A stretch of DNA of 64,000 nucleotides from an uncultured Gemmatimonadaceae bacterium (GTDB lineage Bacteria > Gemmatimonadota > Gemmatimonadetes > Gemmatimonadales > GWC2-71-9). The DNA lies in assembly GCA_964348295.1 (NCBI GenBank), contig CAYGBV010000017.1:6736-70735 (forward strand), in the 5' to 3' direction. The notes below the pieces were generated by a model. It saw nothing but the letters and a program-made list of their open reading frames with translations. It searched no databases and had not been told where the DNA came from. Below, piece by piece: positions 56,094 to 62,295 of the stretch (position 1 is its first letter; every line of letters starts with the position of its first letter). The translations under genes and the position numbers were made by a program.

Positions 56094-57364
56094 AGGTCCT
56101 CGTCGTCGGGAGCGGCGGCCGGGAGCACGTGCTCTGCTGGGCCCTATCCCGATCGACCACCATCTACTGCGCCCCGGGGAATCCGGGAACCGCCCAGCTG
56201 GGCGCCAACCTGCCGATCAAGGTGAGCGACCACGCCGGCATCGTGGACGCCGTGCGCGAGCACGGCATCGACCTCACCGTGATCGGTCCGGAGGCCCCGC
56301 TCGCCGAGGGCCTGGTGGACGACCTCGCAGACGCCGGCTTCAAGGCATTCGGGCCGACGGCGGCTGCCGCGCAGATCGAGGCCTCCAAGGCATACGCCAA
56401 AGAGGTGATGTTCGCCGCCGGCGTCCCGGCCGCGGGGAGCGAGACCTTCACCGCCGAGCGGCCGGCGCTGGACTACATCGCCGCGCACGCGGAGCCGCTG
56501 GTGGTCAAGGCATCGGGACTGGCCGCCGGGAAGGGGGCGACCGTGTGCGAGACCCGCGCCGAGGCGGCGAGCGCGGCCAGGGAGATGTTCGGCGGGAAGT
56601 TCGGCGAGGCAGGGAGCACCGTCGTGGTGGAGCAGTTCCTCACCGGCGAGGAGCTCTCCATTCTCGCCTTGACCGACGGGGAGCAGGTCATGCTGCTCCC
56701 CGCCTCCCAGGACCACAAGCGCATCGGCGAGGGGGACACCGGGCCGAACACCGGCGGCATGGGGGCGTACACGCCGGTATCAATCGCCGACCAGGCACTG
56801 CTGGAGTGCGCCGACCGGGAGATCATCCGGCCGGTGCTCGCTGAGCTCGCCAAACGGGGGACACCGTACCGCGGCGTGCTCTACGCCGGGCTCATGGTGG
56901 ACGACGCGGGCCAGGCCAGGGTACTGGAGTTCAATTGCCGCTTCGGCGACCCCGAGGCGCAGGTGGTGCTGCCCGCTGCCGACCTCGACCTCACTGAGCA
57001 GCTATGGCCGATCGCCGCCGGCGAGGAGTGGCACCCGCCGACCACGTATTGCGCGGCCCGGCAGGCCGCCGTCACCACCGTCCTCGCGACCCCCGGATAC
57101 CCAGCGGCGCCCGTGAAGGGCCAGGAGATCTACCTCCCCAGCCCGCTGCCCGAAGACACGATCCTGTTTCACGCCGGCACCGCCGAGGAGGCCGGCACCC
57201 TGCGCGCGGCGGGGGGCCGAGTGCTCAACGCCACAGGGCTCGGGCCGGACGTGGTCGAGGCCGCGGAGCGGAGCCGCGCCCTGGCCGAGGCCATCACGTT
57301 CGAGGGACGCCAGTACCGCAGGGACATCGGGTGGCGCGAGGTAGCGCGTGCCGGAGCTTCCTGA
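56090..57364 (+). CDS. purD: phosphoribosylamine--glycine ligase
   Basis: GTG start overlaps the upstream stop (GTGA). MKVLVVGSGGREHVLCWAL, PGNPGTA, VVKASGLAAGKG. Confidence 0.96.
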   Translation: MKVLVVGSGGREHVLCWALSRSTTIYCAPGNPGTAQLGANLPIKVSDHAGIVDAVREHGIDLTVIGPEAPLAEGLVDDLADAGFKAFGPTAAAAQIEASKAYAKEVMFAAGVPAAGSETFTAERPALDYIAAHAEPLVVKASGLAAGKGATVCETRAEAASAAREMFGGKFGEAGSTVVVEQFLTGEELSILALTDGEQVMLLPASQDHKRIGEGDTGPNTGGMGAYTPVSIADQALLECADREIIRPVLAELAKRGTPYRGVLYAGLMVDDAGQARVLEFNCRFGDPEAQVVLPAADLDLTEQLWPIAAGEEWHPPTTYCAARQAAVTTVLATPGYPAAPVKGQEIYLPSPLPEDTILFHAGTAEEAGTLRAAGGRVLNATGLGPDVVEAAERSRALAEAITFEGRQYRRDIGWREVARAGAS

Positions 57365-58184
57365 GGTCGAGACGATCGTTCGCGACCTGCGCCCCAGGCT
57401 CACCGGTCGAAAGCTCAGCACTCCCCATCTCCACCGCACCGACGTGCTTCGCCGGGTCAGCCGCCAGCGGCTGATCCGGACCCTGGACCGCAACCGCATC
57501 GGCACCGTGGCGCGACGGGCCAAGCACGTCGTGATCGGCCTCGCCAGCGGCCACCGGCTGGTCATCCAGCCCCGCATGACCGGCAGCCTCCTGGTGTATG
57601 AGCGCCGCCTCACCGCGGAGCAGCGCCGCTACGCAGTCCTGGACGCCGGCATCGGGGGCGGGGCACGGTTCGTGTACCGCGACGTGCGCCGCCTCGGTAC
57701 CATCTGGCTCTTGGACGAACGCGGGTGGCAGACCTATACTGCGCGCATTGGTCCCGAGCCTCTGGATGACGACTTCGACGCCGACCGCTTCGCGACGCAG
57801 ATGACGGGCACGCACCAGGCCATCAAGAAGGCGCTGATGGACCAGCGCCGCCTGGCGGGGGTCGGCAACATCTACGCGAACGAGGCGCTGTTCCGGGCGG
57901 GCATCGACCCCTCGCGTCCCGCCGCCCGGCTCAGGCGCACCGAGCTCGAGTGGCTGCATCACCACGTGCGCGAGGTCTTGGAGGCAGCCATCGCGGCTCG
58001 GGGCACCACGGTGCGGGACTACCGTACCGGGACGGGACAGTCCGGCTCGTACCAGGATCTGTTACAGGTGTACGGGCGCGGCGGAGAGCCGTGCCGCCGC
58101 TGCGGGGCGCGGCTCGTGACCACGCACGAGATCGACGGGCGCGCAACGACGTTCTGCTGGCGCTGCCAGGGGAAGCCGCGATGA
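57348..58184 (+). CDS. mutM: formamidopyrimidine-DNA glycosylase
   Basis: MPELPEVETI N-terminus (GTG start). H2TH region. C-terminal zinc finger CRRCG...FCWRCQ. Confidence 0.95.
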   Translation: MPELPEVETIVRDLRPRLTGRKLSTPHLHRTDVLRRVSRQRLIRTLDRNRIGTVARRAKHVVIGLASGHRLVIQPRMTGSLLVYERRLTAEQRRYAVLDAGIGGGARFVYRDVRRLGTIWLLDERGWQTYTARIGPEPLDDDFDADRFATQMTGTHQAIKKALMDQRRLAGVGNIYANEALFRAGIDPSRPAARLRRTELEWLHHHVREVLEAAIAARGTTVRDYRTGTGQSGSYQDLLQVYGRGGEPCRRCGARLVTTHEIDGRATTFCWRCQGKPR

Positions 58185-59200
58185 AGATCGCCGTCGTGTT
58201 CGACACCCCCAACGACGGGTGGGAAGACGAAGATTACAAGCAGGAAGTAGCCGCGGAGGTGGACGAGCCCGAATACGAGGTGGCGGAGGCCTTGATGGCC
58301 TATGAACACGACGTACTGCTCGTGGGTGTGCACGACGACCTGCATCACATGTTCGAGCGGCTCGCGGCATTCAAGCCTGATTTGGTGTTCAACTGCTCGG
58401 AAGCATTCCACGAGCGGTCACGGCTGGACTACGTGTTCCCAGCGCTGCTGGAGGCGGAGGGGTATCACTACACCGGCTCGCCGCCCATCGCCCTCCTCAC
58501 CACCCGCAACAAGGCGATGAGCAAGAAGGTCCTGGCGTGGCACGGGGTGAAGGTGCCGCGCTTCGTGACGTACCGGCGCACCGAGGAGGTCGAGACCGCT
58601 CCCGACCTCGCCTTTCCGCTCATCGTGAAGCCGCTGCAGGAGGACGCCTCGGAGGGGATCGCCCAGGCTTCGGTGGTGCAGGATCTCGACGGACTCAAAG
58701 AACGCGTGCACTTCATCCACGGGAGCTTCCATCAGCCGGCGATCGCAGAGGAGTTCATCGAGGGACGGGAGCTGTACGTCAGCATGCTGGGGAACGGGGC
58801 GGACCTCCAGATCCTCCCCATCATCGAGATGGTGTTCGACAAGGACAAGACCAAGCCCGAGGAGCGTATCGCCACGAAGGCCGCCAAGTGGGACGAACCC
58901 TACCGGGAGCGCAAGGGCATCAAGAACGTGTTCGCGCGACCACTCTCGCAGGCCGCCGAGGAGCGCATCGAGGAAACCTGCCGCACCGCCTTCCGGGCTC
59001 TGTGGCTGCGGGACTACGCCCGCATGGACGTGCGGCTCACGCCGGACGACGAGGCGTGTGTGGTGGAGGTCAACGCCAACCCGTTCATCAGCTTCGGGCA
59101 CGACACCGCCAACGCCGCAGAAAAGGCCGGTCTGGACTACTACGCATTCATCGACCGCATCGTACAGGAGGCCCTCGCCCGGTATGAGTCGCACCCGTAG
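58181..59200 (+). CDS. ATP-grasp ligase, D-Ala-D-Ala-ligase-like
   Basis: ATG 58181 overlaps the mutM stop (ATGA). MKIAVVFD..., KAMSKKVLAWHGVKVPRF, FPLIVKPLQEDASEGI, EEFIEGRELYVSMLGN and RMDVRL...VVEVNANP ATP-grasp elements. Confidence 0.8.
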   Translation: MKIAVVFDTPNDGWEDEDYKQEVAAEVDEPEYEVAEALMAYEHDVLLVGVHDDLHHMFERLAAFKPDLVFNCSEAFHERSRLDYVFPALLEAEGYHYTGSPPIALLTTRNKAMSKKVLAWHGVKVPRFVTYRRTEEVETAPDLAFPLIVKPLQEDASEGIAQASVVQDLDGLKERVHFIHGSFHQPAIAEEFIEGRELYVSMLGNGADLQILPIIEMVFDKDKTKPEERIATKAAKWDEPYRERKGIKNVFARPLSQAAEERIEETCRTAFRALWLRDYARMDVRLTPDDEACVVEVNANPFISFGHDTANAAEKAGLDYYAFIDRIVQEALARYESHP

Positions 59201-60200
59201 GCGGAAGACCCGCCACCCGACGCCGCGCCCCGAGTTACGCTGCGCCTGCGGCCACGAGCTCAGGCGGTTCTGGCCTCACTGCCCCTGGTGCGGCCGCAAG
59301 CAGGTATGGCGCGACGACCCGCCGATCACCGGGGCGGAGTGCTACAAGTGCGGCTGGGTCGTGTCGGACCACAGCAATTTCTGCCCGTGGTGCGGCACCG
59401 ACATCTACGAGGAGGGCTACTCCGTCGAGGAGCCGCTCAAGGCTCCCAAGGGCTTCCGCTTCGACGGGCGCTGCGACGGGGGATGCGGTGGGGGCGTGCA
59501 GTATCCCATGCCCTATTGCCCGTGGTGCGGCGAGGAGCAGGAGTGGGACGACGAGGGCTTCGACGGCCCGTGCCCCCACTGCCACCGCGGTGTGAACGAC
59601 TGGATGGAGACGTGCCCCTGGTGCGGCGGCGACCCCACCGGCCAGGACCTGATTCCGCGCGCGCTGCGGCGTGTGAGGGAGCTCTTGCGGGCTTCACGCA
59701 TCAAAGACTGGAACTACCGCGTGGTGCTCCGTCCCGGCGTATCCGGCGTGGACCCCAAGTTCCCCAAGATCATCGAGATCGACTGGGATTACGTGCTGCA
59801 CGCCCGCGGGCGGGACGAGATCCCGTGGACCACCCTGGTCGGTCTCATCTGTCACGAGGCGGGTCACAGCTTCCTGTACCACCACTGGGGGTGGACCAGA
59901 AGGCCCACGTTCAGGCGCGTGTTCGGCGAGGTACACCGGGCGTACCGGGTGCGCGACGAGACCTGGGTGGACATGCAGCGCCGGCGCGTGAGCGCGACGA
60001 AGCCTCAGTACGTGAGCGCCTACGCATCCAACCACCCGCTGGAGGACTTCGCGGAGACGTTTCGCTTCTACGTGATGCGGCGCGGCCGGATGCGGGAGCT
60101 CCTCGCCGAGCTGGGCCAGAAGCGCAAGGCAGTGATCGTATACGAGAAGTTCCTCGCGCTGGACCACTACCTCCGCTACATCCGTTCGCTCCGGCGATGA
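59184..60200 (+). CDS. four-zinc-ribbon protein with C-terminal HExxH metallopeptidase-like domain
   Basis: ATG 59184, 17-nt overlap with the upstream gene. Four units of Cx(1-3)C-x10-CPWCG. Then ICHEAGHSF (HExxH) and NHPLEDFAETF. Confidence 0.75.
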   Translation: MSRTRRRKTRHPTPRPELRCACGHELRRFWPHCPWCGRKQVWRDDPPITGAECYKCGWVVSDHSNFCPWCGTDIYEEGYSVEEPLKAPKGFRFDGRCDGGCGGGVQYPMPYCPWCGEEQEWDDEGFDGPCPHCHRGVNDWMETCPWCGGDPTGQDLIPRALRRVRELLRASRIKDWNYRVVLRPGVSGVDPKFPKIIEIDWDYVLHARGRDEIPWTTLVGLICHEAGHSFLYHHWGWTRRPTFRRVFGEVHRAYRVRDETWVDMQRRRVSATKPQYVSAYASNHPLEDFAETFRFYVMRRGRMRELLAELGQKRKAVIVYEKFLALDHYLRYIRSLRR

Positions 60201-61312
60201 CGGCGAGCCAGGCCCTCGCGCTACCACTCGGCGACCTCGACATGCTCAGGCGCCGGGTGGCGGCGCTGGCCGAGAACCGTCCCGGGGTTTACCGCATGCT
60301 CGACCCGTCGGGGCGTGTGGTCTACGTGGGAAAGGCAAAGCGGCTGCGCGGCCGACTCCTCTCCTACTTCCGTGCGAGCTACCCAGCAGACAAGGCGGCC
60401 CGCATTCTGCACGCCGCGGCCGACATCCGCTGGGACTACGTGCCGTCTGAATTCGCCGCGTTCCTGGGAGAGCTCAAGCAGATCCGCCGCTACCGACCTG
60501 TCTTCAACGTGCGAATGAACCGCCACCGCAGGGTCGGGTTCATCAAGATCGCCGGGGGAACGGCACCGAAGCTCTACGTGGGCGGCACCGTGGGCGGCGA
60601 CGACGTGCGGCACTACGGACCGTTCGTGGGCGTGGGGCGCCTGAAGGAGAGCGTGAAGGTCCTGAACGACCTCCTGGGCTTGCGGGACTGCGCGCTCTCG
60701 ATGCCGATGGCCTACTCGGATCAGCAGGATCTGTTCGTCGGCTCGGAGCGGGCTGCGTGCATGCGTCACGAGCTCGGAACCTGCGTCGCTCCCTGCGCCG
60801 GATTTGTGACGGAGCCCGAGTACCGGCGCCGCGTGCGCATGGCCATCGACTTCATCGAGGCACGCGACGTGGCGCCCCTCGACCGGATCATCGCCCAGAT
60901 GACGGGGGCGAGCGAGGCTCAAGACTTCGAGCGCGCCGCCTGGTGCCGCGGCAAGTTCGACGCCCTCACCTGGTTGCTATCCGCCTGCACCCGAGCGCAG
61001 GCGGCGCTCGAGGCGCTGAGCTTCGTGTACGTCGATCCCGGCGTGTACGGCGACGACCGCGCCTACGTCGTCCGACGGGCCACCGTGCGCGCCGCGGCCC
61101 CGGCACCGCACACCCCCATCGAGATCGAGGCATTCCGCTCGCTGGTTGCCGAGCACGCCAACGGCGAGCCCCAGCCCGGCCCGATCCCGGCGGCGGCGAT
61201 CGACGAGACGCTGTTGCTGCTTTCCTGGTTCCGTCGCCACCCCGGCGCGCTGCGCCGCACGGTGGGACTGGAGGAGTGGCTGGAGCGGCACGCACCGGGG
61301 TTACACACATGA
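60197..61312 (+). CDS. UvrC N-terminal-half homologue (GIY-YIG nuclease + UVR motif; Cho-like)
   Basis: ATGA overlap. GVYRMLD...VVYVGKAKRLRGRLLSYF, SEFAAFLGELKQIRRYRPVFN, GPF...LRDC, C...HELGTCVAPCAG, and UVR-like EAQDFERAAWCRGKFDAL. No EndoV-like or HhH C-terminal half. Confidence 0.8.
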   Translation: MTASQALALPLGDLDMLRRRVAALAENRPGVYRMLDPSGRVVYVGKAKRLRGRLLSYFRASYPADKAARILHAAADIRWDYVPSEFAAFLGELKQIRRYRPVFNVRMNRHRRVGFIKIAGGTAPKLYVGGTVGGDDVRHYGPFVGVGRLKESVKVLNDLLGLRDCALSMPMAYSDQQDLFVGSERAACMRHELGTCVAPCAGFVTEPEYRRRVRMAIDFIEARDVAPLDRIIAQMTGASEAQDFERAAWCRGKFDALTWLLSACTRAQAALEALSFVYVDPGVYGDDRAYVVRRATVRAAAPAPHTPIEIEAFRSLVAEHANGEPQPGPIPAAAIDETLLLLSWFRRHPGALRRTVGLEEWLERHAPGLHT

Positions 61313-62295
61313 TCGGCCAGACAGCGCTCGCCGTCCTCGAGCTCGTTGCCGGCCTCGCGGTGCTGTTCTACGGCGGGAGTCTTCTGGTGCGCGGCGCCAC
61401 GGCCGTGGCTCTCCTGGCCCGGATCTCCACCGCCGTCGTGGCACTCACGGTGGTCGCGATGGGGACGAGCCTGCCGGAACTCGCGGTGAGCGTACGAGCG
61501 GCCTGGCGGGGCTCCACCGACATCGCCTACGCCAATGTCATCGGCTCGAGCATCTTCAACATCGGAGCCATCCTGGGCTTGGCCGCAGTAATGATGGCCA
61601 TTCCGGTGCGCAAGCACGCCCTTCAGGTCGAGTACTGGATCATGCTGGTGGCCACCGGCGCCGTCCTGTACTTCGCCTTCAACGGCAACGTGGGTCACCT
61701 TGAAGGCGTAGCACTGTGCGTCGGTCTCGGGCTGTTCGTGCTGTACAGCATCTACCACGCCCGGCGCGGGGTCAGCGGGAGCGAGGCGGCGGCGATGGAG
61801 AGTGAGGTGAAGCGCGCGGCGCACATGAAGGACGGTGCCGTGCGTGCCTGGGGACTCAACGTCGCGCTCATAGTGCTGGGCCTGATCGCGCTGGCCGTCG
61901 GAGCGGAGCTCTCCGTTCTGGGGGCGGTGACTGGTGCGCGCGTGCTGGGCGTGGAAGAGCGGGTCATCGGCCTTACCATCGTGGCCATGGGGACCAGCCT
62001 GCCGGAGTTCGCCACCTGCGTGGCCGCGGCGCGGCATAAGGAGCCGGACATCGCCCTGGGCAACGTGATCGGCTCCAACATCTTCAACCTGTTCGGTATC
62101 CTGGGAGTCACCGCCGCGATATTCCCCGTCCCGGTACGCGGCACGTTCCTTACGGCAGACAACTGGGTCCTGCTCACCTTCACTGTGCTGCTGTTCCCGA
62201 TCATGCTGTCGCGCCGGAGTGTCTCGCGCCGCGAGGGGCTGTTCCTACTGGTGGGCTTTTCCGTCTACATCGTGTGGGTGGTGGTGGCGCGGTAG
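61309..62295 (+). CDS. CaCA-family cation/Ca2+ antiporter (YrbG-like)
   Basis: ATGA overlap. Two alpha-repeats, GTSLPELAVS...NVIGSSIFNI and GTSLPEFATC...NVIGSNIFNL. Confidence 0.9.
   Translation: MIGQTALAVLELVAGLAVLFYGGSLLVRGATAVALLARISTAVVALTVVAMGTSLPELAVSVRAAWRGSTDIAYANVIGSSIFNIGAILGLAAVMMAIPVRKHALQVEYWIMLVATGAVLYFAFNGNVGHLEGVALCVGLGLFVLYSIYHARRGVSGSEAAAMESEVKRAAHMKDGAVRAWGLNVALIVLGLIALAVGAELSVLGAVTGARVLGVEERVIGLTIVAMGTSLPEFATCVAAARHKEPDIALGNVIGSNIFNLFGILGVTAAIFPVPVRGTFLTADNWVLLTFTVLLFPIMLSRRSVSRREGLFLLVGFSVYIVWVVVAR

Follow-up and report, generated by a model that had tools for sequence, protein, structure and literature searches.

What does a metallopeptidase that carries four zinc ribbons act upon, and why should its gene lie directly against that of an ATP-grasp ligase? 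The question is raised by a locus in a 64,000-nucleotide stretch of DNA from an uncultured Gemmatimonadaceae bacterium (contig CAYGBV010000017.1, positions 6,736 to 70,735; the whole stretch is hereafter the window), in which a gene for a protein with four tandem ribbons and a Peptidase_Mx domain follows one related to D-alanine--D-alanine ligase (Ddl). Databases already contain both the peptidase family and this architecture, labelled generically, and the literature that we searched yielded no paper on the function of the family or its members, of the ligase, or of the ligase-peptidase pair. In the interpretation that we favor, with a probability of about 0.5, a competent Mx gluzincin and a Ddl-like ligase constitute a ligase/peptidase cassette in which the peptidase would hydrolyze the bond made by the ligase, the ribbons acting as a targeting or regulatory module.

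A Two-Gene Cassette of Ligase and Peptidase

58181..59200, + strand: Ddl-like ATP-grasp amide ligase; PF07478 at 77.7 bits; its start overlaps the mutM stop (ATGA)
59166..59171, + strand: AGGAGG, a Shine-Dalgarno-like hexamer seen in the sequence 12 nt upstream of the peptidase ATG, within the 3' end of the ligase gene
59184..60200, + strand: four-ribbon Peptidase_Mx gene (protein P0001), 338 aa; from translation, Pfam and orthologues
59184..59237, + strand: Arg/Lys-rich N-terminal tail, residues 1-18; modelled as disordered (pLDDT 47-67); charge +6, orthologue mean +3.4

The peptidase begins at the ATG at 59184, overlapping the ligase stop by 17 nt. Its orthologues share this first Met, which leaves a longer open reading frame (ORF) from the GTG at 59058 unsupported. 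By inspection, no hydrophobic segment follows the Arg-rich tail, and we read the peptidase as cytoplasmic.

Ligase and peptidase form a self-contained two-gene cassette. Of 21 related loci, 16 have the ligase immediately upstream of the peptidase, and so do 31 of the 33 four-ribbon loci in a species-level genome collection. The peptidase is also present in every one of the 55 sampled Gemmatimonadota genomes that have a ligase orthologue (at least 53% identity), and the pair moves together through at least six genomic contexts. In five loci of genera g27 and g18 (L015, L016, L019, L022, and L025) the ligase is missing between mutM and the peptidase in a block that is otherwise syntenic; in three of the five genomes, all g27, it is found on a contig other than that of the peptidase, and the remaining two are G112 and G059. 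One contig (G034) ends within the peptidase gene and is uninformative on linkage, and two fragmented assemblies (G013 and G169) yielded no ligase orthologue. In one further genome both the ligase and the peptidase matches contain an in-frame TAG (G182:C143:24469-26460), and these copies may be decaying or reflect an assembly error.

A protein search with the peptidase returned 335 relatives. The best 120 of these have 289-344 aa and 61-88% identity, all with PF15887 and nearly all with the DZR domain; the named ones among them are from Gemmatimonadales metagenome-assembled genomes and bear the label 'putative zinc-binding metallopeptidase'. In a sample of 201 Gemmatimonadota genomes, roughly two thirds of those in the same family as the window have the full-length peptidase, as does a single genome from a different family; elsewhere only single ribbons or the Mx core were matched, and weakly. 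The orthologue set used below comprises 44 proteins with 62-88% identity. The first-pass annotation, made from the sequence alone, had regarded the attachment of such an array to a protease as uncommon. This was overstated: a zinc ribbon preceding an Mx domain is canonical (PF10005+PF15887, e.g., protein P0268), and in the ESM Atlas about 1245 proteins with exactly this four-ribbon Mx architecture form one cluster, for which the name 'putative zinc-binding metallopeptidase' is already in use.

Other Gemmatimonadota possess a second form of the cassette, which we call type B. Its Mx protein (345-410 aa) has no ribbons; it has an N-terminal helical region and the motifs HEAGHA and WYAQKHPDEDFAETF, and its C terminus is extended by about 150 aa. 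Its gene stands directly upstream of a second Ddl-like ligase, about 40% identical to that of the window (one example is in genome G157). Scanning one genome per species with the shared motif, we retrieved 47 distant ribbon-less loci, from Acidobacteriota, Aminicenantes, Thermoanaerobaculia, Myxococcota (including Cystobacter fuscus, L131), Bdellovibrionota, Omnitrophota, Verrucomicrobiota, Planctomycetota, Eisenbacteria, and Alpha-, Gamma-, and Deltaproteobacteria (including Bradyrhizobium, L135, and Methyloceanibacter). A Ddl-like ligase adjoins the Mx gene, mostly downstream and on the same strand, in 46 of the 47 by ORF clustering or in 44 of the 47 by tblastn, a proportion biased by the derivation of the retrieval motif from ligase-linked types. 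No third conserved gene emerged across these diverse loci, which yielded two gene clusters only. In these comparisons the ligase/peptidase cassette spans more than ten bacterial phyla. The two types share the two-gene make-up and the catalytic motifs, and their ligases are paralogous. However, the peptidase comes first in type B, and the cassette of the window is a local variant: its gene order is inverted, and ribbons replace the N-terminal helical region and the C-terminal extension.

The occurrence of both gene orders (the ligase leads here, the peptidase in the ribbon-less type) and the gene linkage itself would also suit a maturation protease, in which Mx cleaves a precursor and exposes a residue that the ligase then extends or links, processing thus preceding ligation. 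We consider this unlikely, given that we found neither a small ORF resembling a precursor nor a third conserved gene and that the graspetide-type ATP-grasp families differ from the Ddl-like ligase. A graspetide or other ATP-grasp system for ribosomally synthesized and post-translationally modified peptides was rejected on similar grounds, as no precursor peptide or other maturation gene is conserved beside the two gene clusters. Finally, PADLOC matched no defence-system model to the peptidase or the ligase of either cassette type, and a reading as anti-phage defence or toxin-antitoxin was discarded on this basis.

The Partner Ligase

In JGI sources the partner ligase is annotated as D-alanine-D-alanine ligase. 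It scores 96.8 bits on TIGR01205 and 112.5 bits on NF002378, against cut-offs of 245.65 and 243, respectively, whereas the true Ddl of the genome, encoded on another contig, reaches 267 bits on TIGR01205. Compared with the latter, the partner ligase does not conserve the segment of the second D-Ala pocket, and it has insertions around the omega loop. Its sub-cut-off scores and the presence of a true Ddl elsewhere led us to reject it as the D-alanine--D-alanine ligase of this genome. The RimK profile matches it at 19.9 bits, below the cut-off of 21, and the protein is acidic. Outside the window, two tandem Ddl-like ATP-grasp paralogues on contig C5 (G000:C5:120193-122006; L004/L005) score 134.7 and 124.4 bits on TIGR01205, also below the cut-off, and are distinct from both the true Ddl and the cassette ligase.

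The surroundings of the pair vary. At nine loci where only the pair is matched among the window's genes, the neighbors comprise an amine oxidase, a TIR protein, a Na/H exchanger, ScpA, MscS, CorA, a subtilase, and an AMP-binding enzyme; the TIR-domain protein (TIR_2, 73.9 bits) adjoins the cassette in a g4 genus context (L061 10414-11625). The ligase-free peptidase of genus g2 (L153 6544-7782) is preceded by an MFS transporter and by a polyamine-linked gene of the deoxyhypusine-synthase family. In most independent contexts a transporter or channel is found within one or two genes of the cassette or of the peptidase (window 61300-62295; L059 5323-6906; L053 5914-7944; L056 5722-6870; L002 8512-9840; L153 5052-6608), the types being a CaCA antiporter, a Na/H exchanger, MscS and CorA, CorA, an amino-acid permease, and an MFS protein. 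These types are mutually unrelated, so the proximity may be due to chance.

The ligase is closest to Ddl/Van enzymes and L-amino-acid ligases, which use free amino acids, and this raises an alternative in which the cassette serves small-molecule peptide metabolism. The product of the ligase would be either a free di- or oligopeptide or a conjugate of an amino acid (for osmolyte, storage, or signalling purposes), Mx would be a hydrolase dedicated to recycling or detoxifying it, and the ribbons would be structural only. The cassette has no conserved protein-substrate gene, and the transporters often found beside it (CaCA, Na/H exchanger, CorA twice, MscS, amino-acid permease, MFS) could be taken in the same sense. 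However, a 150-residue four-ribbon module, present also on the typically protein-acting JAB and C39 peptidases, is unexpected for a dipeptidase, the nearest fold matches of the catalytic domain (lethal factor and PPEP-1) are endopeptidases, and the transporters have nothing in common by type. We regard this alternative as possible, if doubtful.

Family, Active Site, and Fold of the Catalytic Domain

59646..60197, + strand: Peptidase_Mx catalytic domain, residues about 155-338; strongly basic; Pfam match at residues 213-298
59853..59867, + strand: HEAGH zinc-binding/catalytic motif (H224, E225, H228); invariant in orthologues; contacts the modelled Zn
60021..60062, + strand: second motif, Y280-ASNHPLEDFAETF; in the model, E287 provides the third zinc ligand and Y280 lies next to the metal

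The first-pass annotation had named the family Peptidase_Mx, and correctly so: PF15887 is matched at 50.2 bits against a cut-off of 27, with which a whole-genome scan agrees, and the two motifs that it had picked out in the C-terminal half, ICHEAGHSF (222-230) and NHPLEDFAETF (283-293), are both there. Residues H224, E225, H228, D258, Y280, H284, E287, and E291 are invariant in the 44 orthologues. The elements HExGH, Y, HP, and E-FA-F are kept in at least 90% of 35 sequences, distant Mx proteins among them, and are invariant in an eight-sequence alignment of both cassette types, and the second motif recurs in the solved relatives 4l7a and 9urd.

AlphaFold models of the full-length protein (pLDDT 83.6, pTM 0.77) and of the domain alone (pLDDT 84.8, pTM 0.85) are both confident. 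A single zinc docked in the domain contacts domain residues 75, 76, 79, 107, 109, 131, 138, and 141, that is, H224, E225, H228, V256, D258, Y280, E287, and A290 in protein numbering. In the docking, Zn, Fe, and Cu each scored 0.90, Ca scored 0.26, and an unrelated protein scored 0.18; these values are indications at the level of the model only, as the tool gives no verdict for ligands. In the model, the His and Glu residues of HExxH and a downstream Glu gather round the docked metal, in keeping with the site that the first-pass annotation had envisaged. This suggests that the third zinc ligand is E287, and not H284 or E291, with Y280 placed beside the metal.

Fold searches gave almost nothing but zincins, at low significance. 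A PDB sequence search with the single peptidase protein produced chance matches only, and Foldseek, run against the PDB with the whole model and with the catalytic domain, returned nothing at E <= 0.001. About 40 of its 49 matches are zincins, all of them weak (best E 0.05-0.08, best TM 0.44): anthrax lethal factor is on top (E 0.05-0.08), PPEP-1 has a TM of 0.44, and selecase with related minigluzincins, BepA, HtpX, BlaR1, M32 carboxypeptidase, and IRAP are further down. The similarity to lethal factor and PPEP-1 is accordingly slight (E >= 0.05, TM <= 0.44). The zincin-dominated list agrees with an earlier prediction of a zincin fold for DUF2248/PF10005, for which the C-terminal domain of lethal factor was the best template by FFAS (Lenart et al. 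2013; PMC3650047).

A sequence profile finds the solved relatives 4l7a (E 1e-4) and 9urd (E 5e-4), which have the helix YA..xED(F/I)(A/V)E in common with our protein. The Mx domain is very basic (charge +16 here, orthologue mean +15, pI about 10.6), which hints at an acidic substrate. Taken with the models, the protein is apparently a catalytically competent, conserved gluzincin peptidase of the Peptidase_Mx family.

Relationship to Known Systems

With Peptidase_Mx (PF15887; formerly DUF2248/UCP012641) the protein shares HExGH, the pattern (V/I)(S/T)xYAxxHPxEDFAE, an N-terminal zinc ribbon, and a score above the cut-off; HExxH and YAxxHPxEDFAE are common to alignments containing the canonical P0268 (267 bits on PF15887). 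In contrast to the canonical form, it has four single Cys4 ribbons (two DZR units) and no PF10005 match, it covers only HMM positions 81-165 of 236, and its catalytic domain is very basic, that of P0268 being acidic.

The nearest solved relatives by profile, 4l7a and 9urd, are Bacteroidota proteins termed 'substrate import-associated zinc metallohydrolase lipoprotein' (TIGR04549/Peptidase_Mx1). The likeness lies in the helix YA..(P)xED(F/I)(A/V)E. However, these are secreted lipoproteins tied to SusCD-type import, with neither ribbons nor a ligase partner, and the window's peptidase scores 27 bits on TIGR04549 against a cut-off of 75.

By structure the best matches are lethal factor and PPEP-1 (MEROPS M34) and the MtfA-type gluzincins, with HExxH, a Tyr, and a Glu ligand on a later helix; the HExxH...Y...E layout probably corresponds to that of lethal factor residue by residue. 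The similarity is nonetheless weak by the values given above, and our protein, which lacks a secretion signal, is no toxin. Membership of M34 at the sequence level was rejected (profile versus PPEP-1, E about 1).

The Zinc-Ribbon Module

59241..59294, + strand: zinc ribbon 1 (C20, C22, C33, C36), C20-A-C22-x10-C33PWCG; the first knuckle is CxC in this clade
59340..59396, + strand: zinc ribbon 2 (C53, C56, C67, C70), C53YKC56-x10-C67PWCG
59472..59531, + strand: zinc ribbon 3 (C97, C101, C112, C115), C97DGGC101-x10-C112PWCG; preceded by a conserved PKGF linker
59571..59627, + strand: zinc ribbon 4 (C130, C133, C144, C147), C130PHC133-x10-C144PWCG

The translation of 59184-60200 contains four tandem Cys4-CPWCG units exactly as first described. 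The CP.CG pentapeptide occurs four times in the 128,000 six-frame residues of the window, each time inside the peptidase ORF, into which 4 of the 10 Cys4-like patterns of the window fall. DZR (PF12773) is matched over two stretches at 36.3 bits against a cut-off of 27.3, and by this score and their paired Cys4 knuckles the ribbons can be classed as double zinc ribbons. All 16 Cys are invariant in the 44 orthologues and likewise in 13 distant proteins with a mean identity of about 29%, a degree of conservation that, in these alignments, is far beyond chance. In the AlphaFold model the ribbons are ordinary well-folded units (pLDDT 92-96).

From 1.84 billion representatives, a profile search drew 594 matches. 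Some of these cover the whole 130-residue array, and in 13 aligned array proteins near-invariance extends to W114, G103, and the Gly of the KGF linker. The 31 whole-array proteins include four with a JAB domain behind the array (P0213, P0227, P0247, P0249), three with Mx (P0122, P0163, P0165), and two with a papain-like C39 domain (P0191, P0221), the others being unassigned. On the evidence of the alignments, the whole module is homologous across Mx, JAB, and C39 proteins and is mobile. A metagenomic representative of 470 aa, P0134, joins a Dala_Dala_lig_C fragment, ribbons 2-4, and Mx, which reflects either a genuine fusion of ligase and peptidase or a frameshift in the gene call.

What might the ribbons do? 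Nucleic-acid binding, one of two roles offered in the first-pass annotation, is disfavored because the module is acidic (mean charge -6.5, pI 5.2). The targeted protease that the same annotation had inferred would be compatible with the occurrence of this module on JAB and C39 peptidases. DZR arrays also front Ser/Thr kinases and proteins with FHA domains, and a regulatory role is therefore possible. These same signalling proteins, together with the 16 invariant Cys in a cytoplasmic protein, could be taken to favor a redox- or zinc-gated protease in which the four Cys4 sites act as a switch, as in Hsp33, RsrA, and the rubredoxin domain of PknG. Such gating would be compatible with the interpretation that we favor, but the ribbons model as ordinary, well-folded units, and we judge it improbable.

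The genome's second ribbon match, on contig C19, is an unrelated DZR-FHA protein. It belongs to an unrelated signalling cluster (L041 4495-8113; G000:C19:206494-210112) of a double-zinc-ribbon protein, whose C-terminal region is FHA-like by eye, a Ser/Thr kinase bearing a zinc ribbon at its N terminus, and a PP2C-like phosphatase.

The Flanking Repair Genes

57348..58184, + strand: mutM (Fpg); Pfam H2TH and Fapy_DNA_glyco; a neighbor by inherited synteny, outside the cassette
60197..61312, + strand: Cho-like protein corresponding to the N-terminal half of UvrC; its start overlaps the Mx stop (ATGA); inherited synteny only

The Cho-like protein has sub-threshold Pfam matches to GIY-YIG (17.6 bits) and UVR (17.3 bits) and is 62-86% identical across the syntenic genomes. 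With mutM on the other side, its position invites a reading as a DNA-damage module, in which Mx would be a SprT/Spartan-like protease for DNA-protein crosslinks working with MutM and a Cho-like nuclease, the ribbons binding DNA. The four genes are indeed chained by overlaps, of the ATGA type at 58181-58184 (mutM/ligase) and 60197-60200 (Mx/cho-like) and of 17 nt between ligase and Mx, and mutM and cho flank Mx in 12-13 of the 21 loci, also where the ligase is absent. However, every locus flanked in this manner shares a whole block of about ten, and up to eleven, syntenic genes (metC-like, M48, purD, mutM, (ligase), Mx, cho, CaCA, YfcE, ubiX, ubiA), an inherited gene order. In the nine other loci, the ligase-peptidase pair alone is matched among the flanking genes of the window, with neither mutM nor cho. 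Because the whole block is syntenic and the pair stands alone in nine loci, we take mutM and cho to be neighbors by descent and the pair to be the unit. Moreover, only ligase and Mx are conserved across phyla, Pfam gives no SprT-like match, and the ribbon module is acidic. We therefore rejected membership of the SprT/Wss1/Spartan group, and a DNA-damage role for the locus seems highly unlikely.

A Proposed Function for the Cassette

Several systems are known in which an ATP-grasp-type ligase is matched by a hydrolase of the same bond, namely RimK in the glutamylation of S6, the tubulin tyrosine ligase-like enzymes and their carboxypeptidases, and glutathionylspermidine synthetase/amidase. By analogy, ligase and peptidase might form a writer/eraser pair. 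The ligase would use ATP to form an amide bond (peptide or isopeptide) on a common cellular substrate, and the Mx peptidase would hydrolyze that bond or trim its product. The acidic ribbon module would provide partner recognition, or regulation or gating of the activity, and not nucleic-acid binding, with the very basic catalytic domain suited to an acidic substrate. The parallel has its limits, in that the hydrolases of these systems are not homologous to Mx and the ligase here is Ddl-like, not RimK-like.

Various observations weigh against this interpretation. The peptidase occurs without a ligase orthologue in genus g2 and in genomes G059 and G112, the last two having only ligase paralogues of 35-39% identity, so that the peptidase can act on its own. 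Nor is there a ligase beside the canonical PF10005+Mx protein P0268, and no ATP-grasp neighbor was seen for the JAB and C39 ribbon proteins, whose contigs are short or whose neighbors are unannotated. To these may be added the bias in the retrieval of the 47 loci, a metal docking for which the tool gives no verdict, fold matches of which none is better than E = 0.05, and the fact that no curated family names either partner of the cassette. A complex prediction for ligase and peptidase likewise gave an ipSAE of 0.00, although this is not evidence against a shared substrate: the absence of a predicted stable complex fits sequential action on a common substrate and proves nothing.

A more specific version of the writer/eraser proposal can be put forward, if only tentatively, since we think it rather unlikely to be correct in full. 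The ATP-grasp/Mx pair would carry out reversible tagging of proteins with amino acids or peptides in more than ten phyla, and the ribbons would be dedicated to recognizing the tag or its carrier, having been recruited independently by peptidases of three folds that are unrelated to one another (zincin, JAB, and papain-like C39).

Significance

For this member of a named but uncharacterized peptidase family, the main interest lies in its conserved ligase partner, a clue that the first-pass annotation had passed over. Across many phyla of soil and sediment bacteria, a Ddl-like ligase and an Mx zincin make up a strict unit of two genes. The four-ribbon module, common to JAB and C39 peptidases, offers a handle for finding targets. 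If the pair does write and erase an amide modification, it would represent a new post-translational or metabolite-conjugation system in bacteria, and would account for hundreds of mis-annotations as 'D-alanine--D-alanine ligase'.

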